A DNA stretch of 64,000 bases from a virus, in the IMG/VR virus record IMGVR_UViG_3300034152_000556, positions 1 through 64,000 of that record; one strand, written 5' to 3'. The translations under genes were made by a program, and so were the position numbers. Positions within the stretch are counted from its first letter, which is position 1, and each line of letters begins with the position of its first letter. The notes under the pieces are model-generated. The model did not search any database and was not told where the DNA came from. It saw only the letters and a program-made list of their open reading frames with translations. This document shows positions 2 to 62,302 of the stretch, piece after piece.

Positions 2-118
2 AACGGGTTTCTGGATACAGTGGCAACGGGAGATTATTATAGAATACAAGCTGGAATAATTGGGGCTTCAATGACTTTTGATACTTTAGGTTGTTGGGTT
101 TCTATGAAGGCGTTTTAA
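2..118 (+). CDS. 3' end of a gene running in from the left edge (possibly a virion/tail fibre protein)
   Basis: Frame open from 2 to TAA at 116-118 (NGFLDTVATGDYYRIQAGIIGASMTFDTLGCWVSMKAF*); function only guessed from context. Confidence 0.45.
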   Translation, partial: NGFLDTVATGDYYRIQAGIIGASMTFDTLGCWVSMKAF

Positions 119-133
119 CATAAGCTAAGAAAT

Positions 134-147
134 GGAACAAAAATAAA
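134..147 (+). promoter_or_regulatory. Putative phage late promoter (GGAACAAAAATAAA), possibly giving a leaderless mRNA
   Basis: Copy of the recurring intergenic G(A)GAACAAA motif directly abutting ATG 148; no SD. Confidence 0.55.
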
Positions 148-594
148 ATGGGAGCATCATACGCTATAATAAATAATTTGGTTCAGGAAGGATTTACGGT
201 TACCAATAAGCGTAATCGTTTAATCACTGGGATTCCTGTGGGTCAGTTTACTCATAAACTTTATGACCCGACTGATGCAGAAAGTGCGTTGGCTGTAACA
301 ATCACAGAGCTTGGTGATGGAAATTATCGTGCTGAATTTACACCAAATGTAACTGGTGATTGGTATTTAACTATTTACCACCCACGCTATTTCCCTTGGG
401 GTAAATCCAATGATATTAAAGTTCAGCCAAATGATGCAGAGATCGCTAGAAAGGTTCTAACAAATAAACAAACGTTAGTTAAAGATTCTGATGACCATTT
501 TGTACAAACAATTTATGATGATGATGAAACCACACCAATTCAAACAAACGATCTTACTTGCGATGGTGATACTGAAACGAGGGATCCGAGATGA
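148..594 (+). CDS. Putative virion protein (beta-rich, Ig-like)
   Basis: 148-aa ORF; TITELGDGNYRAEFTP...GDWYLTI pattern; late-gene context. Confidence 0.55.
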   Translation: MGASYAIINNLVQEGFTVTNKRNRLITGIPVGQFTHKLYDPTDAESALAVTITELGDGNYRAEFTPNVTGDWYLTIYHPRYFPWGKSNDIKVQPNDAEIARKVLTNKQTLVKDSDDHFVQTIYDDDETTPIQTNDLTCDGDTETRDPR

Positions 595-13658: not shown

Positions 13659-13668
13659 TATTAGACAA

Positions 13669-13705
13669 AAAAACAGCTGGTCAGTGATTTTGACCAGCTG
13701 TTTTT
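13669..13705. terminator. Bidirectional intrinsic terminator
   Basis: AAAAACAGCTGGTCA-gtgattt-TGACCAGCTGTTTTT between convergent genes. Confidence 0.85.
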
Positions 13706-13711
13706 CCGCCG

Positions 13712-14227
13712 TTATTTCTTTCTCCAGTCCTCAAGTGCAACAACCCGCTCAACATATTTGTGTATTTCTTTGATATTCACCAAAGGAAATAGATTAATGA
13801 ACACAAATGATTTGGCATAGCGATTGTTCCTCAGGGTTGATAAAGCTTTATGTCTTTCTGTTTGAATGATTGATTCTTGTGCTGTTGTTACTTCGTGAAC
13901 TGATAGCGCTTTTTCTACAATTTGTTCATAGTATGTATTAATAGCCGCACCAAACATTTTCATGTCAATAACAAGACCAAGGTCTTTCAATATTTTGATG
14001 AATTGTTGAATGGAATCTTCATTTATTCTTGTTGTGTCAGTACTGAAAATTGGTGAGTTACATATACCCATAGAAATTGCTGTTATATTTTCTGGGTTTG
14101 CGCCTTCATATCTGAAGTACCCAGCCTGTTCTGCTGGTGACATGTATAGCGTAATATCAAAGTCTGGTGGTACTGCAATAAATGTAACAAATACATGTGC
14201 TAACCTCTCTTGCATATAATCAAACAT
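13712..14227 (-). CDS. Hypothetical protein
   Basis: 171-aa ORF, SD GAGG, last gene of the leftward operon. Confidence 0.65.
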   Translation of the reverse strand: MFDYMQERLAHVFVTFIAVPPDFDITLYMSPAEQAGYFRYEGANPENITAISMGICNSPIFSTDTTRINEDSIQQFIKILKDLGLVIDMKMFGAAINTYYEQIVEKALSVHEVTTAQESIIQTERHKALSTLRNNRYAKSFVFINLFPLVNIKEIHKYVERVVALEDWRKK

Positions 14228-14234
14228 ATTTACC

Positions 14235-14750
14235 TCAATGTTGGCTTATTTGAATAAAAGAAACATTTCTGAATGTGCCATCATGCTCTAATCTTCCTTC
14301 GAGCTGACCATTCTCGTCCCCGTAATTGAATTGATACAAAAACTTGCCAGCATTGTGTTTTATAAACCTTTCTGCAACTTTCTTTGCAGCTCTTAGGTTT
14401 GCACGTTGCTGTAACTTTTTTGCTTTCTGATAAAGGTCTGGGTATTTGCTCCACAGATCGTATTTGTTAACACCATGCTCTTCAGCAATTTTTTCTTCGT
14501 ATAGATCATATCTTGGTTGACCGGTGAAGCTTCCGTGTTGTATTTGTTCGGTTAACATTTTTAACATTGAAATTGAATCTGGGTTTATTATATATGGGTT
14601 CTGATGTGCGCAATCAGAATAAACTCTCTCCAATCGTTCTGAATCAATATTCAAGATGTTCAAATCTTTCAGCGCTGAAATAGGTGCTGAAAAAGCAACA
14701 AGAAACGAGCTTGAAGATGAGTTTGTAACAAAGTCAATTTTTATTTTCAT
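14235..14750 (-). CDS. 'MKIKxDFVTNSSS' family protein, copy 1
   Basis: N-terminus MKIKIDFVTNSSSSSFLV shared with two ORFs at 59.6-60.5 kb. Confidence 0.75.
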   Translation of the reverse strand: MKIKIDFVTNSSSSSFLVAFSAPISALKDLNILNIDSERLERVYSDCAHQNPYIINPDSISMLKMLTEQIQHGSFTGQPRYDLYEEKIAEEHGVNKYDLWSKYPDLYQKAKKLQQRANLRAAKKVAERFIKHNAGKFLYQFNYGDENGQLEGRLEHDGTFRNVSFIQISQH

Positions 14751-14897
14751 AACTCTCGACCGAATACATCTATACCAATCATTCCAACACCGTCATCGCA
14801 TTCTATGATTGTGTCGATTGGTGGTAGGGGTGATAAGCAGGGAAATTCTTCGAGTTGGTGAAATTTAAATTCTTGTTTCTTCCTATCAGTGGTGGGT

Positions 14898-15113
14898 TCA
14901 GGTTCCGTCATTAGCGGTATCTCCCTTCTTTGAGGTATAGTTGTCAGCTCCCCATCCCGTACCTTTCAGATGGAAAGCTGACAGTGATATCAATTTATTT
15001 GTGGGACCATTGCACTGAGGGCATCTTGGAAATTTGGCTGGGTCAAGTGAATGATCGCACAGTTTTTCAAATTCATATTTACAGAGTTTGCATTTAAATT
15101 CGTAGATTGGCAT
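14898..15113 (-). CDS. FmdB-family zinc-ribbon protein
   Basis: MPIYEFKCKLC...CPQC...FHLKGTGW; start ATG 15113 with SD AGGAG. Confidence 0.85.
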   Translation of the reverse strand: MPIYEFKCKLCKYEFEKLCDHSLDPAKFPRCPQCNGPTNKLISLSAFHLKGTGWGADNYTSKKGDTANDGT

Positions 15114-15121
15114 AACTACTC

Positions 15122-16174
15122 CTACAGACCAAGAGGGCAACAGTTTCTTTTTCTGAACAGAATCTTACGAAATATTTTAAAATCTTGTGCTTCTGTCCAC
15201 ACCTCTTGAATTGATTTTTCTTGTATTGATTCACCAACAGCTTTATGTGCAAAGCTACATGGCATTAGCCGCATGTCGGGAGAAATATAAGCACTCATTC
15301 TACCACCTTCGCAAGTATCAGTTGTTAACTGTTGAGCTTCTGTTATATCGTGTGTAATGAGATTAACTAGACAAGAGTCCATGCCGATCTTGAATGGTCG
15401 TGGATATTTCTCAGACACAACTTCTGCAAAGTGTTTGACTTGCTTTTTCTCTGGTATGAATTGAGTAAAATTCTTTGCTCTACCTTGCGGTTTGAACAAT
15501 AGAAAAATGATACCATTAATTGCTTCAATATCAAAAGGCGGTCGATTGACACCATTTACATTTCTCCAAGGGTTATGCCCATAAGCGAGTTTTATAACAT
15601 CGCCATAACTACCCCTTGTGAATACGTAATGAATATTTACTTTTCGCACACCGACTTTTTTAAAGCGGTTGATTGCGCGATAAGTATATGGTTGTTGATA
15701 ATCGCTTACTGCTACAGCACCACAGAGTCTTGAGACCTCTGCTTGTCTATTGGTCAATCCCCGACCACTTGTGGTATAGTTTGGAATCACGTTGTGTTCT
15801 CTACAGTATTCAATTATATGTTCGAAATTTTCATGATGGTTTGGGTCTCCCCTACCACCAAGTGCAACCTGATTGACACTCCCCTCAACTTCATCAATTA
15901 TCTTTTTAAAATTATTAAGTGTCATGTTGGGTTGACTTTTAGAGCCTTGATAACAAATTGCACATTTGTTTTTACAATGCCCCATGATGCCAATATCAAG
16001 CAGTGTTGGCATATCAAGCATGAAGGGGTCCGGGTTTCCATTTATACCCTCTAGAACTTCAAGGCCCGAATTACGATTGAACAGCACTCGATATCGATCT
16101 GTCTTTATCTCTTTGGTAAATGTCAATCTCAATCGAGTGCCATTAAAGTTCACGATTCTGCGAAATGATGTCAT
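15122..16174 (-). CDS. Radical SAM enzyme with SPASM/twitch domain
   Basis: CKNKCAIC (CxxxCxxC), ALGGRGDP, CEGGRMSAYISPDMRLMPCSF, C-terminal CP. Confidence 0.88.
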   Translation of the reverse strand: MTSFRRIVNFNGTRLRLTFTKEIKTDRYRVLFNRNSGLEVLEGINGNPDPFMLDMPTLLDIGIMGHCKNKCAICYQGSKSQPNMTLNNFKKIIDEVEGSVNQVALGGRGDPNHHENFEHIIEYCREHNVIPNYTTSGRGLTNRQAEVSRLCGAVAVSDYQQPYTYRAINRFKKVGVRKVNIHYVFTRGSYGDVIKLAYGHNPWRNVNGVNRPPFDIEAINGIIFLLFKPQGRAKNFTQFIPEKKQVKHFAEVVSEKYPRPFKIGMDSCLVNLITHDITEAQQLTTDTCEGGRMSAYISPDMRLMPCSFAHKAVGESIQEKSIQEVWTEAQDFKIFRKILFRKRNCCPLGL

Positions 16175-16177
16175 CGT

Positions 16178-16780
16178 TTACCCCGGAATCGCATTGATTG
16201 CGCAGACGAGCGTATATACGATAAAGAATACTACTGAAAGAACACCGCTTGCGCATTTCCACTCACCAGAGTCCCATTCATATGCGGATTTGTATTCGAT
16301 CATTTTTTCTTCACCTTTCATATATACGTGTTTAACGGGGAAGTGAAATTTTCGAACATAGATGCCCAAAAAGATTGTAAGTAAAACCCAACTACCAGTG
16401 CAAATGGCGAATTGAATAATATCAGCACCGAGAAGCTTATAAATAATAAGAACGGTTACCAGAATGCCAACTTCTGTTTTAATAAACTCATTAACTTCAA
16501 CAGATAGCGATCTTGCAATGTTCTTGAGTGTGTTGGCAAACGCTTCCCCAAGCTGATTCCAATCAGTCACCTCTTTCGTTATCGTTGTAACTGATTGTTG
16601 TTTCATCTGAGAGATGTGGTTGATGAGACTTTGTTTGGTTTGAGAACTCAAGTTTGGGTCGGTCAAGATTTCTTCAACGGTCATTGTTGATAAATCTTTT
16701 CCCTCAGAAGCCGAAGACGCCGTGCTTGCCCCGACGAACATTACGATCAACATTAGAACTGCTAGTACCTGTTTCATCAT
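16178..16780 (-). CDS. Membrane protein with signal peptide
   Basis: N-terminal signal plus three hydrophobic segments. Confidence 0.65.
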   Translation of the reverse strand: MMKQVLAVLMLIVMFVGASTASSASEGKDLSTMTVEEILTDPNLSSQTKQSLINHISQMKQQSVTTITKEVTDWNQLGEAFANTLKNIARSLSVEVNEFIKTEVGILVTVLIIYKLLGADIIQFAICTGSWVLLTIFLGIYVRKFHFPVKHVYMKGEEKMIEYKSAYEWDSGEWKCASGVLSVVFFIVYTLVCAINAIPG

Positions 16781-17843
16781 TCGTTCCTTTCAGAAAGTTT
16801 TCGCATATAGATATGCAAAGATTGTTAATCTGTTTATGTTTCGGTTTTTCTGGTAATACGCTGGTTTCAACTTTCTTCTTTGTTTCATTTTCGAACCATT
16901 CAAATCGTTCCATCAACTCATCATATGAGTATTTTCCGTCTCTAATTTTTAACAGTTCTTTAGCATTTGGTCTTGGTAAAGTGATGTGCCCAGTTTCAAG
17001 AAGTTCAAAACATTCTTCAGTTAATCTATATAGGTGCATACCATGCTTTGTATCATAGCCAAATTTGGCTTCTAAAGCTGCACGAGCGGGGTTTCTTGTT
17101 TTAACCCAGTGTTGGTATTGCTTCCAATGCTGAAGAGCTGATTTATATCCTCTCTCACGCGTATAGACCTCAATGAAGTTCTCTGACACATCATGAATTG
17201 GTTTGAGAAGTCGAAGATGCTCTGGTTCAACATTTCGAATGTTACTCAACAGAGCTTTGTAATTGTGTGTTTCTTCTAGCTCTAACAGTTCATCTTTTAG
17301 ATGATTATATTTACTGATTTGCTCTAGATAATCAGCTAATAAGCTATTGAATGCACCCATCTGATCGCCAGAGATCATTTTGCGTTCTTCAGGCAAACCA
17401 AAATCTTTGCGTTCTGGTTTTTTCTTGGGTGGATTTAGAAGCCATGCCCGATGGGTTTTGATGCGTTTGATTTGTGCAATAGCATACCCCATAAATGATC
17501 TTCTGCATTGTCTAGAAAGAAACAGATTTCTATTTTCGACAACGGTTTGCCATTCAGGAGTATTGATTTGAAGCTTTTCAGGTGGGACAAAAAGATATTC
17601 AATTACTGTAGGGTTTTGACTTATTGCCAACTTCATAAATTCTCGAATTTCTTTATATTCAATGTCGTTTTGTTTGTCTTGATAGTTTCTAGTTGTTGAT
17701 AAGAACCCATAAAAATATTCTTTGGTCGGTATGAACACACCCCTCAGATCAACGTCTGATTCGGGTGTGCTCGTACCGTAAAGATGGCTACCGGCGAGAA
17801 ACTCGCAGATAATTTTGAAGCCTTTTGGAAGTTCGATGCTCAT
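16704..17843 (-). CDS. Pol-beta superfamily nucleotidyltransferase (RlaP/Nuc-transf-like)
   Basis: GSHLYGTSTPESDVDLRGVF, NPTVIEYLF, GYDTKHGMHLYRL. Confidence 0.85.
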   Translation of the reverse strand: MSIELPKGFKIICEFLAGSHLYGTSTPESDVDLRGVFIPTKEYFYGFLSTTRNYQDKQNDIEYKEIREFMKLAISQNPTVIEYLFVPPEKLQINTPEWQTVVENRNLFLSRQCRRSFMGYAIAQIKRIKTHRAWLLNPPKKKPERKDFGLPEERKMISGDQMGAFNSLLADYLEQISKYNHLKDELLELEETHNYKALLSNIRNVEPEHLRLLKPIHDVSENFIEVYTRERGYKSALQHWKQYQHWVKTRNPARAALEAKFGYDTKHGMHLYRLTEECFELLETGHITLPRPNAKELLKIRDGKYSYDELMERFEWFENETKKKVETSVLPEKPKHKQINNLCISICENFLKGTNDETGTSSSNVDRNVRRGKHGVFGF

Positions 17844-18220
17844 AGATACTCAGGCTCCTTCTCTGATTTATTTTTGTCTGGCGCGATGGATTTTTCTTCT
17901 GATTCATGTTTGAGTTCTTCTTTCGCCTCTTCTTTTTCGGTTTCTTTTTTTCCGGTCCATTTCTCCATTATATCTTTACCATCTTTCTTTGCTTGCTCAA
18001 AAGCTTCTTTCGCTTCTTTGATAGTATCTTTAAATTCTTCCTTGACATCTGCCATTTCATCTTTGACATCTTTTACTTCTTCGGCAACTTCCGTTTTGAT
18101 TCTAGTCTCATCCTTATCATCATCACTACAGAGACCAAATCCACCTGTGGTAATGGCTATAAGTAAGAGCCACCCCCAAGGAAAGTCGCTTTCACCTTTT
18201 TCATTGAGAAACCAACTCAT
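17840..18220 (-). CDS. Membrane-anchored Lys/Glu-rich protein
   Basis: N-terminal hydrophobic segment, then highly charged helix. Confidence 0.6.
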   Translation of the reverse strand: MSWFLNEKGESDFPWGWLLLIAITTGGFGLCSDDDKDETRIKTEVAEEVKDVKDEMADVKEEFKDTIKEAKEAFEQAKKDGKDIMEKWTGKKETEKEEAKEELKHESEEKSIAPDKNKSEKEPEYL

Positions 18221-19550
18221 CAAATTTCTCCTTTGCCAATTTTAATAGGGTTTCTGTATTGTTTAGTTCCGGCTCATCAACCGCAACTTCCAATAAATAT
18301 TTCATCAGCTTACCAATCATCGGTCCTGGCTTGATTTCTAGAGTATTCATTAGATCGTGCCCATTTACCTCTAAGTCTTTGAACTTATTTGGTGTTCGAA
18401 TATCAAATGCATTTCTGATGCGTTCAAAATCAGCACGAATTCTTGATAGAGGCCAAGGGTCCTTTTTAATATTGGCTTTGCTGTCTGCCAGTTTTATTCG
18501 ATACAATTCTGACCAAGGTATATCACGATCAGAAAGCTTCTTTAGAGTTCGTCTGGCTGCTTTTGGTGATGCAAAGTTATTCATGTGCATTCGTGTTAAA
18601 GAAGAGATAAACTCTATCTCTTTATTGCTGAACTTGAGTTCAGCTAGCTCTCTTTCAAGAATATCACGACCAACTTTATCATGACCTTTGAATCTCAAGT
18701 CTTTGGTCTTTGGGTTCCAACTCGCAGCCTTTGGCTTGCCAACATCATGTAGATATCCAGCTAACTTGGTAAGAGGATATTTGGTTGAGATTGAATCTCC
18801 ACAGATGTAACTGTGTGTGATGATGCTTTCCCAGTGGTGTCTTCCATGTAAATCACCGAATTCATACATACAATCGATACTCGGCAACACATGTATTAAA
18901 GCATCAATCTCTCTCAGTGCATTGAAGAAAGCTGAAGCGATTCGAATCTTCATAGCTTTCATAATTTCGCCTCGAATTCTTTCTCTTGCAACATGAGTTC
19001 TTACAAGGTCAGCATTTTTTCTCAGTGCCTCTCTTGTTTCTGTTTCAAATACACCATCGATTGAAGCAAGAAAGCGACATGCACGAATAATACGGTTGGG
19101 GTCTTCAAAGATTCTTTCATTTGGGTCTCCCACGAATTTAATCTGTCTTTTTTTCAGGTCGTCTTTTCCACCATGCGGGTCAACTACCTCACCTGTGAAT
19201 TGACAGAACGCCATTGCGTTAATCGTTAAATCTCTGCGAGATAAATCCTCAAAAATATTATTTGCATATGTCACTGTTACACATTTGTCGCTCAACCCCT
19301 CGTATCTATCTTTACGAAAAGTGGCTACCTCTATTCCATCAACAAAGGTGACTTTAAAGTATGTACCGGCTGTTACAATTTTATGACCTCCAAATAACTC
19401 AATGATTTCTTCAGGTTTTGCTGATGTTGCAATGTCTTCGTCATGTGGATTTTTGCCGATCAAAAAATCACGCACCGCACCTCCAACGATGTATGTATCA
19501 TACCCATTTTCACACAGCCGCTTTACAATATATTCTGGTGTCGCTTTCAA
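18201..19550 (-). CDS. cca: CCA-adding tRNA nucleotidyltransferase with HD domain
   Basis: VGGAVRD, DEDIAT, EVATFR, RRDLTINAMA, EDPNRIIRACRF, LHDVGK; probable TTG start at 19550 after GAGGAGG. Confidence 0.88.
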   Translation of the reverse strand: MKATPEYIVKRLCENGYDTYIVGGAVRDFLIGKNPHDEDIATSAKPEEIIELFGGHKIVTAGTYFKVTFVDGIEVATFRKDRYEGLSDKCVTVTYANNIFEDLSRRDLTINAMAFCQFTGEVVDPHGGKDDLKKRQIKFVGDPNERIFEDPNRIIRACRFLASIDGVFETETREALRKNADLVRTHVARERIRGEIMKAMKIRIASAFFNALREIDALIHVLPSIDCMYEFGDLHGRHHWESIITHSYICGDSISTKYPLTKLAGYLHDVGKPKAASWNPKTKDLRFKGHDKVGRDILERELAELKFSNKEIEFISSLTRMHMNNFASPKAARRTLKKLSDRDIPWSELYRIKLADSKANIKKDPWPLSRIRADFERIRNAFDIRTPNKFKDLEVNGHDLMNTLEIKPGPMIGKLMKYLLEVAVDEPELNNTETLLKLAKEKFDELVSQ

Positions 19551-19594
19551 ATATTCACCTCCTCTCAAAAAATAAAATGAAAATTGTTATTTAT

Positions 19595-58446: not shown

Positions 58447-59479
58447 TATCTTCTCCCTCCAGCTTTCTGATGAATTCAATATACTCATCATGCTCTTCTT
58501 CTGGTATTTCTTGACCAGCTAGATACCGTCTCAAGATTTCTTCGTCTGTCATCGAAGAGCTAAGACCGCGATCTGTTATATCTTTGTCTGTTCTATCTAC
58601 AATTATAAATTCTTTTTCCAGCTTGTCTGTGTCAATCGTTTCTTTCTTTATGATCTTAACAAGATGCCCCTCTTGTCGAAGCCTTTCTGCTTTCTGAATT
58701 GTTTCTTTTATATTCTTTTTTGTCAGATCAAGCTGTACGTGTTTACGATAACCAGATGTTGGTATGCTTTCTACCTCTAAGGTTTCAGAATCAACAACGA
58801 GAAATCTTTTTTCATCATCTTTTTCTCCCCAATCCAATTGAATTGGTGAACCAGCATAAAATATTCTGACATTTTCATTGCTGACTTCTTGTGGTTTATG
58901 GTAGTGACCAAGCAACACCAGATCATAATTGTTTTCTAGATGTCGAATGCTTATATCGGAAATAATACTTAAACCAGAATTTACAACGGCTTCGTTCAAA
59001 CCAAAGTGCGATATAAGAATATTAGCTTTAGCCTTTTTAATAGTAACTGCCATATCTGAGCTGTAAGGTACTATTAGAATAGACGGTCCTGCATCGATTT
59101 TGGCTATAGACCCACACATTCCGTGTGTTGCATTTATCTCAACAGAGTCATGATGATCTAGAAATTCAAGTGCTGAGATTGCATCTTTGCCTTTATGCGA
59201 AAGGTCATGATTACCAGTTACAACCCAAAACTTCAATTGACGGTAATCTTCTAAAAAGTCTAACAACAATTTCTGTGCAAGACTGTAGATTATTGACTTA
59301 TTGTGCATGATGTCGCCACCAATAACCATGACCCCTATATCATTTTTAACACAGTGATCTGCAATATTTCTCAATGCTTGCATAATACTATGTAATCTAT
59401 CTGGTAGACCCGTCATTTCATTTATGGGGTCTTGACCGTACCTAGAAAGGTGTAGATCAGCTGTAAAAGCAAATTTCAT
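58418..59479 (-). CDS. sbcD: SbcD/Mre11-like nuclease (T4 gp47-like)
   Basis: ADLHL, GGDIMH, GNHD, SH, LGHYHKPQ, YAGSP. Confidence 0.92.
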   Translation of the reverse strand: MKFAFTADLHLSRYGQDPINEMTGLPDRLHSIMQALRNIADHCVKNDIGVMVIGGDIMHNKSIIYSLAQKLLLDFLEDYRQLKFWVVTGNHDLSHKGKDAISALEFLDHHDSVEINATHGMCGSIAKIDAGPSILIVPYSSDMAVTIKKAKANILISHFGLNEAVVNSGLSIISDISIRHLENNYDLVLLGHYHKPQEVSNENVRIFYAGSPIQLDWGEKDDEKRFLVVDSETLEVESIPTSGYRKHVQLDLTKKNIKETIQKAERLRQEGHLVKIIKKETIDTDKLEKEFIIVDRTDKDITDRGLSSSMTDEEILRRYLAGQEIPEEEHDEYIEFIRKLEGEDNERHNLSAG

Positions 59480-59655
59480 AGTTGTTCTCCGTTTGAAGAT
59501 TTTTCGACGGTTTCTTCAATTTGAATTCTTTCTTTTTCTGAATCTGTTGAATCAACTACTTTCAGGAAGATGTTAAGCGCCAATACTGCTAGAAGAGCAG
59601 TAATTGCGATAGAAACCATTAATTCGATCAGAGTAAATCCTTTACTTTTTTTCAT
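59476..59655 (-). CDS. Short type IV pilin-like protein (class III signal peptide)
   Basis: MKKSKG|FTLIELMVSIAITALLAVLAL; SD GAGGAG 7 nt before ATG 59655. Confidence 0.8.
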   Translation of the reverse strand: MKKSKGFTLIELMVSIAITALLAVLALNIFLKVVDSTDSEKERIQIEETVEKSSNGEQL

Positions 59656-60091
59656 TTTCATTCTCCTCAAAATGTAAACATCTATCGATTGTTCGTAAGT
59701 GAGTTTTTATATAAATTTCTGATAACTTATCTGTGTTGACACCAATCATTTCACCTGATTTGTCATATTGCCCAAATTCATTAATTGTGAAACCTTCTTT
59801 TTCAATTAGATTGTATGCAGCATAGTATGCCATCTCCTCAAGATGATCACCTTCTAGTTGCCACACTCTTTCGCATTTCTTTAGTCTTGCTAAAATTTTA
59901 AATACCATATTTGTGAATGCTCGGGTGTCTATGTCATTATTCAAAACTTTTTCAATTTCGTTTTCTTCAAGCATATCACTTGATTTAAGAGCATTTATCA
60001 TTTCTTCATCTGTTGGTTCAAACCAATCTGGTATGAACACTAAATATGATGTTGATGAGCTGTTGGTCACAAAATCTCCTTTAATTTTCAT
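59642..60091 (-). CDS. 'MKIKxDFVTNSSS' family protein, copy 3
   Basis: True start ATG 60091 (ATGA overlap): MKIKGDFVTNSSSTSYLVFIPDW. Confidence 0.75.
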   Translation of the reverse strand: MKIKGDFVTNSSSTSYLVFIPDWFEPTDEEMINALKSSDMLEENEIEKVLNNDIDTRAFTNMVFKILARLKKCERVWQLEGDHLEEMAYYAAYNLIEKEGFTINEFGQYDKSGEMIGVNTDKLSEIYIKTHLRTIDRCLHFEENENEKK

Positions 60092-60474
60092 AACTCTATT
60101 TTTTTCAGATTTAATTGAGTATACCAATCATCAACCATTGATTTTGGTATTACATGAATTACACCTTCATAGTCTGGTGCGTATGTATCAAGTAATATGA
60201 CAGCATCACTACCTAGTGATTCAATAATGCTATAGTAAATGCTTTCATTTTCAGTTTGTGTAAAGGTCACATAATCTTTTGCTTCTTTTATCTCCTCTAA
60301 TGCATCCCTTACAGATTCAACTAACTTATCTATTTCGGTGTAACCAAGGTCTTGTTCGACATATTCGCAAGCCTTCATGATATCTTCATCACTTGGTACT
60401 TGCCAGTTGTCGGGAACACATATGAGATATGATGTTGATGAACTGTTCGTGACAAAGTCTAATTTTATTTTCAT
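60088..60474 (-). CDS. 'MKIKxDFVTNSSS' family protein, copy 2
   Basis: MKIKLDFVTNSSSTSYLICVPDNW. Confidence 0.75.
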   Translation of the reverse strand: MKIKLDFVTNSSSTSYLICVPDNWQVPSDEDIMKACEYVEQDLGYTEIDKLVESVRDALEEIKEAKDYVTFTQTENESIYYSIIESLGSDAVILLDTYAPDYEGVIHVIPKSMVDDWYTQLNLKKIEL

Positions 60475-61874
60475 GCTCCACTCAATATTTGCATGGCTTG
60501 ATCTCTTTCAACGTTTGTGACCTTACCTTTGTAGTACAAGAGAAAACGTATAGACCACTCTTTTGCATCATAGAAATCAAGTCTGCTATAGAAGGTTCGA
60601 GATATTTTCTGACAACCAAAGTCAACCATGTCAATGATAATCGGTGTTTTCTTTCCTGGTTTATTTCTAACAATTCTACCAGTTAACTGCTCAACATTTG
60701 AAATCGGTGAGGTCATAATTACACAATCTTTCCAAGGTGCGTCGATGCCGTCTCGACACTTACCGGGAGTTGCGAACGAGACTTTGCTCTTTAATGCATC
60801 AAGCGATGCTGATGCATAAAACTTTGATTTACTCTTGACGTTGAGTTTACTATATAAATCATCAATTATCTTTTTTCTTTCGACCACTACAAGCATTTCT
60901 CGTTCGTTACATAATCTATTAAGCAAGTCAGTGGTAGCAGCAATAAACGGTTTTGATTTTCTCATCATTGTTAGGTATCTGCTTTTTTGAAACTCACCGC
61001 CCCAATACAGATAGTAGCGGCTTTTTGGTTGATCAATATCGTAGTGTACCAACAGAACCGTGACTTTTGGTATCATTGTACCTTCGATATCATTATCAGA
61101 AAATATCTTGCCAAGGTGATACTCAATTATATCACCATTTCCATCGTAACGATATGGTGTAGCACTCAGACCATACGTGTATTTTGCAGGGACATGAATT
61201 GAACACTCAGAGAAAGATGGTGCGCCAACCGATGTATGAACTTCATCAGCGATCATGATACCAATCTTTGCATCATTGAGTGCAAACAGAAAATCAGCCC
61301 TCTGTCTTTTTAAACACGATTTAAAGGTCTGAACTGTTGAAATAATTATTGGTTTTTGAAAATCATCTTTGAAAGTTGTTGAACTTAACAATGCGATGTC
61401 ATCATCTTCAAGATTTGTGAATTGAATGAACCGCTCTCTCCATTGCTTTGCAAGATTCTCTAGATGCACAAGCACTAAAGTTTTGCGTTTGCGCTCACCA
61501 ACCACATAGATTGAAATAACAGTTTTGCCTACACCGGGAGCTAGCTGTAATAGAGCACGGTCGTTCTCAAGTATATGTGCTATTGTTTTTTCTTGTAATT
61601 CGCTTCTTGGAGTGATGTTGTGTTGAATGTTAATTTGCTCACCCTCTTGTTGATGATTATCAATAACAGGGTTTGGTACGAATTTGTTAATCGGAAAATA
61701 TCTTGGTAAGAGAAGAAATTTCTCAGACTCAATATAAAACCGACTAACTTCAAATTCAGACGATTGGTATGCGCGGCTTCGTCGTGTTAAATGTTTTTTT
61801 ATTTCTTTGTAGAACTCCTCGTTTTCATGTTCACGAGATATTAATAGACCCGACCTTTGTATGACTTTTATCAT
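60471..61874 (-). CDS. Superfamily 2 helicase (UvsW-like)
   Basis: APGVGKT, DEVH, GLSATPYRYDG, QLTGRIVR. Confidence 0.88.
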   Translation of the reverse strand: MIKVIQRSGLLISREHENEEFYKEIKKHLTRRSRAYQSSEFEVSRFYIESEKFLLLPRYFPINKFVPNPVIDNHQQEGEQINIQHNITPRSELQEKTIAHILENDRALLQLAPGVGKTVISIYVVGERKRKTLVLVHLENLAKQWRERFIQFTNLEDDDIALLSSTTFKDDFQKPIIISTVQTFKSCLKRQRADFLFALNDAKIGIMIADEVHTSVGAPSFSECSIHVPAKYTYGLSATPYRYDGNGDIIEYHLGKIFSDNDIEGTMIPKVTVLLVHYDIDQPKSRYYLYWGGEFQKSRYLTMMRKSKPFIAATTDLLNRLCNEREMLVVVERKKIIDDLYSKLNVKSKSKFYASASLDALKSKVSFATPGKCRDGIDAPWKDCVIMTSPISNVEQLTGRIVRNKPGKKTPIIIDMVDFGCQKISRTFYSRLDFYDAKEWSIRFLLYYKGKVTNVERDQAMQILSGA

Positions 61875-62302
61875 TGTGTATATTCAGCTTTTGCTGTCTC
61901 GCTTTCCCACACAGTTATCTTTTCTAGAACTAAAAGGTTTTGTGCGTCATCTTTTAGACTATCTATGATTCTGATTAGTCTTGTGAAGAAATATGATGCA
62001 AGGGCTTCAGCTGTCGGGTCAAATGGAAACAAATGTGCTCGACCGAATACATCTTCGTAATCTTCAACCAATTTTTTATCTTTCTCGTTTGCAAGAAATG
62101 AATGATCAAATTCTCCCATGAACTTCATAACTTCTTTCTTTAGCACACCAAAGTCAATAACCATATGGTCATCATTCAATTCATCACTTGAGACTGTGAT
62201 CTCAACTTTCATTGTGTGACCATGTATGAACTTGCAATAACCTTCATGCTTTGATAAGCGATGAGCAACGGGAAATTTCAATATTTTTGTTACTCGGTAC
62301 AT
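61871..62302 (-). CDS. queD: 6-carboxytetrahydropterin synthase
   Basis: AHRL...CKFIHGHT, VIDFG, FDH, PTAE, VWES. Confidence 0.9.
   Translation of the reverse strand: MYRVTKILKFPVAHRLSKHEGYCKFIHGHTMKVEITVSSDELNDDHMVIDFGVLKKEVMKFMGEFDHSFLANEKDKKLVEDYEDVFGRAHLFPFDPTAEALASYFFTRLIRIIDSLKDDAQNLLVLEKITVWESETAKAEYTQ

Follow-up and report, generated by a model that had tools for sequence, protein, structure and literature searches.

A short N-terminal tag on unrelated proteins of large phages and bacteria is genetically linked to a radical SAM enzyme

THE LOCUS

The stretch of DNA analysed here (the window) is 64,000 nucleotides long, positions 1 to 64,000 of IMG/VR virus record IMGVR_UViG_3300034152_000556, and is part of a 108.7-kb contig of 37% GC from a large uncultured myovirus, whose tail sheath finds its closest matches, at 27-31% identity, in the jumbo phages phiR1-37 and AR9. 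Its minus strand encodes a radical S-adenosylmethionine (SAM) enzyme and three proteins that share little beyond a 16-residue segment beginning at the initiator methionine, here called the tag (Table 1). One tagged gene lies just downstream of the enzyme gene, while the other two, at a distance of ~45 kb, follow a ResIII helicase gene that has the same orientation. An earlier note, made from the sequence alone, had given the local order as radical SAM enzyme, FmdB zinc ribbon and tagged protein, and the ORFs (open reading frames) of the minus strand bear this out. It had also noticed two further proteins with the same N-terminus that diverge downstream, and both were recovered by motif scan and profile comparison.

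Table 1. Coordinates of the enzyme, the tagged proteins and the features around them
Feature	Position	Strand	Length	Remarks
Terminator-like hairpin	13664..13710	-		20-bp stem and T run; closes the minus-strand unit
Untagged 171-residue protein	13712..14227	-	171 aa	downstream of the enzyme; co-conserved in the phage clade of the window
Tagged protein 1	14235..14750	-	171 aa	phrog_7397; tag (residues 1-16) at 14703-14750
54-residue ORF	14747..14911	-	54 aa	fills the gap between the zinc ribbon and tagged gene 1; doubtful as a real gene
FmdB-family zinc ribbon	14898..15113	-	71 aa from the likely ATG	Zn_ribbon_8 (Pfam) 6.9e-12; TIGR02605 6.4e-14
Radical SAM enzyme	15122..16174	-	350 aa	SPASM/twitch-like C-terminal domain, truncated
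RlaP-type (RNA-repair-associated) nucleotidyltransferase	16704..17843	-		Pfam PF10127 2.3e-19; phrog_388
Tagged protein 3	59642..60091	-	149 aa	tag at 60044-60091; internal ATG start
Tagged protein 2	60088..60474	-	128 aa	tag at 60427-60474

THE THREE TAGGED PROTEINS

A six-frame motif scan found exactly three ORFs with the tag at Met1 in the window, and no more in the rest of the 108.7-kb contig. Tagged protein 1 starts MKIKIDFVTNSSSSSF, and the 16 residues common to the three can be written MKIK-x-DFVTNSSS-[S/T]-S-[F/Y]. The codons of the three copies differ synonymously, so that it is the peptide and not the DNA that is under selection. Tagged genes 2 and 3 are closely packed, the start of the latter overlapping the stop of the former as ATGA. 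In profile comparison, tagged proteins 2 and 3 align to the 171-residue family of tagged protein 1 only over residues 1-31 and 1-23, respectively, and beyond about residue 23-31 no similarity is detectable among the three. A word-seeded search of a collection of 5.8 billion proteins found no relatives for the C-terminal parts of tagged proteins 2 and 3 other than themselves. Family assignment was tried for all three, but Pfam, NCBIfam and PADLOC gave nothing, and PHROGs only a family of unknown function.

The 171-residue tagged family is by itself large: an exhaustive profile search at E<=0.001 returned 1860 representative clusters, none with a Pfam family. This subfamily has a C-terminal motif in which E155 and H171 do not vary and D145 and H156 hardly do; D46 is likewise nearly constant. 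The AlphaFold2 model of tagged protein 1 (mean predicted local distance difference test, pLDDT, 95.2) has a three-strand sheet, with strand 1 at residues 13-20, and about eight helices. Its residues 1-10 average only 61, and the first ten or so residues of the tag are thus predicted to be flexible and accessible. The fold has no match among solved structures, the best being E 0.36 with Foldseek against the PDB and Z 3.6 in a wide VIA search. Atlas neighbours are all viral hypothetical proteins, and rows for the N-terminal nucleophile (Ntn) family, at TM 0.28-0.37, are not meaningful.

THE RADICAL SAM ENZYME

Against Pfam the enzyme scores 23.5 bits with SPASM (cut-off 21.5) and 24.5 bits with Radical_SAM, under the cut-off of 29.5. 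The CxxxCxxC motif, which supplies the ligands of the SAM-binding [4Fe-4S] cluster, is found at C67/C71/C74; C67 and C74 are invariant and C71 is kept in 112 of 117 homologues. The AlphaFold2 model (pLDDT 91.5) opens with a five-strand beta domain (residues 4-43), and F32, G37, G43 and D49-P50-F51 are the conserved residues of this region. A radical SAM core, a partial (beta/alpha)6 TIM barrel, is evident from alignment of the model with SuiB, SkfB, PqqE, anSME (the anaerobic sulfatase-maturating enzyme) and viperin, at Z 19-25 over 230-310 residues.

The earlier note had labelled the protein a SPASM radical SAM enzyme. The Pfam match agrees with that label, but the domain is a truncated form: the seven-cysteine SPASM motif, Cx9-15Gx4C ... 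CxxCx5Cx3C ... C, supplies the ligands of two auxiliary clusters, but enzymes of the phage clade to which that of the window belongs lack its CxxCx5Cx3C portion and end in a single C-P. The conserved C-terminal cysteines kept in this clade are only C268, C288, C306 and C346, which we take, by analogy with anSME, to be ligands of the first auxiliary cluster only. Homologues of the Firmicutes-type clade, and viral contigs carrying the same enzyme clade, have the full SPASM set, CxxCx5CxGGCP...C.

Sequence matches in the PDB are led by SkfB (4.8e-7), followed by PqqE, BtrN and anSME. By structure, SuiB comes first (Z 24.9, 304 residues), then SkfB (22.7), PqqE (20.8) and anSME (20.1), and after these viperins, BlsE, CteB and BtrN, with radical SAM enzymes of the BtrN and viperin type, which act on small molecules, at Z 17-19. 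VIA aligns residues 1..350 of the model with 3..423 of the SuiB chain, so that the N-terminal region is included. The nearest neighbours of the enzyme, SuiB, SkfB, PqqE and anSME, thus have peptides or proteins as substrates. The 17 NCBIfam matches at E<=0.1 include no anSME model and no FxsB model. With PADLOC the enzyme gave only weak generic viperin matches (E 6e-4) and the tagged proteins none, and no known defence system was recognized.

THE TAG AS A MODULE

From 80 viral loci recovered by the tag we collected 147 distinct complete tagged ORFs of 79-198 codons, taking those with the tag at Met1 and fixed spacing, as is the case for ~187 of ~190 motif matches. The consensus is M-K-h-[K/R]-x-D-F-V-T-N-S-S-S-S-S-[F/Y], always from Met1. 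Conservation centres on N10 (146 of 147), S11 (146), S12 (147) and S13 (146), with F7 (141), T9 (144) and F/Y16 (146) close behind. Past residue 20, these ORFs fall into at least 28 groups without BLASTP links to one another; the tag is therefore modular, borne by unrelated domains. Many of the tagged proteins are small and acidic. Their genes often stand in tandem, with up to seven per locus on viral contigs, 10 at one locus of a bacterial metagenome-assembled genome and 13 on one jumbo-phage contig, and a single genome can carry up to 13 otherwise unrelated proteins with the same tag variant.

Two bacterial tagged proteins, each with the enzyme gene adjoining, are fused to leucine-rich repeats (LRRs) of the BspA type (LRR_5, 4e-54; locus L087:1456-2868) or to a HIRAN domain (4e-11; L133:7001-8236). 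For one gene of the sister form described below, in Klebsiella phage R2_1 (L002:4001-4510), the start codon of the deposited coding sequence is a GTG within the tag. Only six codons separate this GTG from the preceding in-frame stop, and none of the six is an ATG, GTG or TTG.

LINKAGE OF TAG AND ENZYME

The tag and the enzyme are genetically linked. At 73 of the 80 tag-seeded viral loci an enzyme homologue (36-54% identity) lies upstream on the same strand within ~5 kb, often abutting the tagged gene. Of the seven exceptions, three are truncated by the end of the contig. Among the four that have full flanks, two are jumbo contigs that carry the enzyme 20-95 kb away (E 1e-124 and 1e-148), and the other two are contigs estimated at 11% and 78% complete.

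Bacterial loci, drawn from data with one genome per species, tell the same story: 58 of 67 have the enzyme adjacent to the tagged gene, in either order. They come mostly from Lachnospiraceae and Oscillospiraceae, with some from Patescibacteria, Omnitrophota, Synergistota and Flavobacteriia. Of the nine exceptions, four run into the edge of a contig, and four of the other five genomes have the enzyme elsewhere (E<=1e-61). As a background, the enzyme was found at E<=1e-40 in only two of 151 genomes from the family of one tag-bearing bacterium. The second of these two, reached without reference to tags, has a 129-codon gene with a variant of the tag directly upstream of the enzyme.

A second enzyme clade, which shares 24-28% identity with the window enzyme, allows a count from the enzyme side. 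Tagged ORFs lie within 8 kb in 29 of its 33 diverse viral loci, with 1-13 in each of the 29, all on the strand of the enzyme. A sister form of the system occurs in cultured T4-like phages of Klebsiella, Enterobacter, Cronobacter, Citrobacter and Escherichia (Slopekvirus, Karamvirus and the RB43 type), with tagged genes ~20 kb from the enzyme; carriers include E. coli phages Lw1 and phT4A and Klebsiella phage Matisse. The tagged protein has 175 records among cultured phages and the enzyme 172, with a near-identical spread across genera; these carriers are one lineage and so count as one observation. When the Slopekvirus enzyme was used in a single-protein scan for relatives, only near-identical phages came up, and the Firmicutes-type enzyme had no match at 1e-25 in cultured phages. 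The earlier note had proposed looking for co-occurrence of the motif with this enzyme clade; that check, now made, shows it to be strong by adjacency, in whole genomes and against the background.

The type of tag is also congruent with the clade of the enzyme. Tags with D6/T9 go with the clade of the window enzyme or the Firmicutes-type clade (105 enzymes). The divergent clade has G6/S9 tags (112), and its most distant members have D6/S9 (7 tags); D6/T9 occurs in none of these loci. Mapped on a tree of 133 enzymes, tag type requires two changes, the minimum, where shuffled labels require a mean of 20.9, and the D6/T9 set makes up one side of a branch with 100% support. The uniformity of the tag variant among the unrelated domains of any one genome agrees with this.

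BACTERIAL CONTEXTS

The bacterial module is often just a tagged gene and the enzyme, in varied contexts that include CRISPR-Cas I-E, a helix-turn-helix (HTH) regulator, serine recombinases and Avs2. In the second of the two genomes from the 151-genome background (L275:8360-13826), an Avs2-like nucleoside triphosphatase (NTPase; 1342 residues, PADLOC 9e-65) is encoded directly downstream of the enzyme, making a three-gene unit with the order tagged 129-residue protein, with Val at tag position 14, then radical SAM enzyme, then NTPase. Such bacterial contexts and the arrays of small, fast-evolving and often acidic proteins in phages suggest a role in phage-host conflict.

NEIGHBOURING GENES IN THE WINDOW

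From 19568 to 13664 every gene lies on the minus strand. The series starts with a CCA-adding enzyme with an HD domain, an acidic 127-residue protein, the RlaP-type nucleotidyltransferase and a 200-residue membrane protein; it continues with the radical SAM enzyme, the zinc ribbon, the doubtful 54-residue ORF, tagged protein 1 and the untagged 171-residue protein, and closes at the hairpin. The zinc ribbon probably starts at an ATG internal to the listed ORF (14898-15140). The earlier note had included it in the proposed system, but a homologue is present in only three of 80 tag-seeded and two of 80 enzyme-seeded loci, and on this ground we rejected it as a component: it is an occasional, incidental passenger and not part of the core. 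The 54-residue ORF has no family match and no tblastn match in 82 loci.

Family searches with the untagged 171-residue protein gave no match, and its conserved core consists of a hydrophobic strand, then P-P-D-F-D, then a segment REQ-x-G-I-F. By tblastn its family is present in 36 of 80 tag-seeded and 53 of 80 enzyme-seeded loci. Among the 64 enzyme-seeded loci with at least 2.5 kb downstream of the enzyme, 43 have it, making it at least as frequent there as tagged genes: 25 loci have both tagged genes and this family, 18 this family only, nine tagged genes only and 12 neither. It could be a further partner or substrate of the enzyme. The idea that it is a cryptic member of the tagged family was tried and rejected, since hhalign gave a probability of 0.2 and no similarity.

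The RlaP-type gene and the CCA-adding enzyme with an HD domain (16704-19568, minus strand) lie just upstream of the enzyme and run in the same direction. RlaP is also upstream of the enzyme in 12 tag-seeded loci and adjoins the module in a bacterial locus (L144). Two other neighbours were noted near the distant tagged genes. Directly downstream of tagged protein 3, a 64-codon ORF (59476-59670, minus strand) matches the Pfam model N_methyl (2e-10) for the N-terminal methylation motif of prepilins; such a likeness to type IV pilins is unusual for a jumbo phage. At 61871-62302 (minus strand) lies a PTPS/QueD-like gene (Pfam 3e-30), which may indicate a 7-deazaguanine or pterin pathway in the phage.

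INTERPRETATION

On balance the radical SAM enzyme is probably a protein maturase whose substrates are defined by the portable tag at Met1. The flexible first ten or so residues of the tag would bind the enzyme, perhaps by adding a beta strand to its conserved N-terminal beta domain, and the invariant N10-S13 would then be presented to the SAM/[4Fe-4S] site. There the 5'-deoxyadenosyl radical would take a hydrogen from within N10-S13 and leave a covalent change, for which the candidates are conversion of Ser to an aldehyde, as by anSME, or a carbon-carbon or ether cross-link, as by the streptide and cyclophane maturases. In the phage of the window a single enzyme would act on three substrates, the product of the adjacent gene and those of the two genes 45 kb off. 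The proposal in the earlier note that the 16-mer is a site of recognition or modification gains from the co-occurrence, the maturase-like structures and the presence of the tag on unrelated domains, whereas direct binding, the occurrence of a modification, the residue changed and the chemistry are what we infer from these.

A wider form of this idea we hold more tentatively. It would be a widespread and undescribed tag-directed radical modification, in which the enzyme covalently alters the first ~16 residues of any protein tagged at Met1 to make a reactive or cross-linked N-terminus; phages would use it on fast-evolving arrays, and bacteria would couple it to sensors of the Avs2 type.

Several observations weigh against a maturase directed by the tag. 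The main weakness is that when close relatives of the window enzyme are used as seeds, only 43 of 80 loci have a tag within 8 kb, and in 18 of the 64 with sufficient downstream sequence the enzyme is followed only by the untagged 171-residue family; an additional or different substrate is possible. Variant tags were sought in the 37 tag-less loci and none was found. The longer tag-less contigs, four of which were scanned by pattern over their whole length, are estimated to be 12-17% complete, so that absence from them proves little, and the window itself shows that tagged genes can sit 45 kb from the enzyme. Pfam finds in the enzyme no match to PqqD or a canonical recognition element (RRE), the winged-helix domain that binds the leader of ribosomally synthesized and post-translationally modified peptides (RiPPs). 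Residues 13-20 of tagged protein 1, which include the end of the tag, form strand 1 of the model, so conservation of the tag could be partly structural. With only two changes on the enzyme tree, the congruence of tag type and enzyme clade may reflect shared descent and not co-evolution. Lastly, the argument is built wholly from gene neighbourhood and co-occurrence.

The strongest alternative, which we consider unlikely, is that the tag is a docking motif by which the tagged proteins, as interchangeable adaptor or regulatory subunits, bind the enzyme. The target of the chemistry would then be something else, such as RNA, a nucleotide, a protein of the host or the neighbouring 171-residue protein without a tag. 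A tag is not nearby in 37 of 80 enzyme-seeded loci while the untagged family is present in 43 of 64, the operon has a context of RNA repair in the RlaP-type nucleotidyltransferase and the CCA-adding enzyme with its HD domain, and small-molecule enzymes of the BtrN and viperin type are also among the structural neighbours. However, the top structural neighbours are peptide and protein maturases, the bacterial modules often comprise only tagged gene and enzyme in varied contexts, and the invariance of N10-S13 exceeds the usual need of a docking strand.

The earlier note had offered autoprocessing as an alternative, and we find it improbable. Here the tag would process itself, without help from the radical SAM enzyme, by a cleavage at N10/S11 or between two serines that leaves a Ser nucleophile or a pyruvoyl group at the new N-terminus. 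The invariant N-S-S-S and the predicted flexibility of the first ten residues would suit such a site; in the 171-residue subfamily a catalytic site could be made up of the invariant E155 and H171 with D145 and H156, which are nearly so, and several tagged subfamilies end in His. Yet the Foldseek and VIA rows for tagged protein 1 contain no Ntn or pyruvoyl-enzyme fold even at their best scores, the at least 28 unrelated C-terminal domains, LRR and HIRAN included, cannot all supply a common cleavage apparatus, and the tight linkage to the radical SAM enzyme would be left unexplained.

Least probable of all is a sorting signal (for capsid targeting as in the T4 internal proteins, for injection or for secretion) with a merely co-inherited radical SAM enzyme: the architecture does recall T4 IPI-III, tagged proteins 2 and 3 lack detectable relatives and many tagged proteins are small and acidic, but the pair of tag and enzyme is found in bacterial chromosomes without virion genes, near CRISPR, HTH regulators and an Avs2-like NTPase, the tag has no [L/I]-x-E protease site, and tag type tracks enzyme clade.

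If the maturase interpretation is right, a short N-terminal tag that is portable among whole proteins, unrelated to one another, would make them substrates of an enzyme of the radical SAM/SPASM type; we know of no such tag-defined maturase among the described systems that we compared. The module abounds both in large phages and in bacterial defence operons, and it would bring a new post-translational modification into phage biology, unite under one role a large number of phage proteins without assigned function (the 171-residue family alone accounting for its 1860 clusters), and constitute a new currency of phage-host conflict. The 16-residue tag and its enzyme could then become a protein-engineering tool, a transferable handle for enzymatic modification. 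The system is directly testable in the cultured phages of Klebsiella, Enterobacter and E. coli that carry the sister form.

COMPARISON WITH KNOWN SYSTEMS

A full-text literature search for the core of the tag found no papers, a search for phage-encoded SPASM enzymes found nothing relevant, and in the papers open to search we found no description of the module. The closest described enzymes by structure are the SPASM RiPP maturases SuiB and StrB, which make the Lys-Trp cross-link of streptide, together with SkfB and PqqE. As in those systems, one enzyme stands beside one or several substrates that have an N-terminal recognition segment in common. The partners there are short precursor peptides, while here they are whole folded proteins of 75-470 residues with unrelated domains; the conserved segment here begins with Met1 and is probably the site of modification as well; and the enzyme here has no detected PqqD-type RRE and cysteines for only one auxiliary cluster.

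The sulfatase-maturating enzymes anSME and AtsB (Z ~20) offer a different likeness, being radical SAM/SPASM enzymes that modify a folded, full-length protein at a Ser or Cys within a short motif. The tag is rich in Ser, which makes Ser oxidation as by anSME a plausible chemistry. Unlike sulfatases, the tagged proteins have no sulfatase domain and the tag does not contain the motif (C/S)-x-(P/A)-x-R; anSME in turn lacks the N-terminal beta domain of the window enzyme, the alignment beginning at about residue 55.

In their architecture the tagged proteins resemble the internal proteins of phage T4 (IPI-III), small and fast-evolving proteins with a conserved capsid-targeting segment of ~10 residues at the N-terminus. 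In both cases phage-encoded small proteins have only an N-terminal segment in common, but the tag lacks the [L/I]-x-E site of the prohead protease, is linked to a radical SAM enzyme and is found in bacterial chromosomes too.

A parallel in genomic organization is FxsB with its FXSXX-COOH peptides, described in STAND/vWA-MoxR conflict systems (Kaur, Burroughs, Iyer and Aravind 2020; PMC7159879). There too a radical SAM/SPASM gene lies beside variable partners that have in common one short conserved motif containing F-x-S, in an NTPase-centred conflict setting, and the bacterial relative found directly upstream of an Avs2-like NTPase recalls that context. The FxsB motif is C-terminal and released by a peptidase (PMC7159879), whereas the tag is N-terminal, begins at Met1 and has an invariant N-S-S-S core; and, unlike the FxsB system, the arrangement described here is abundant in phages.

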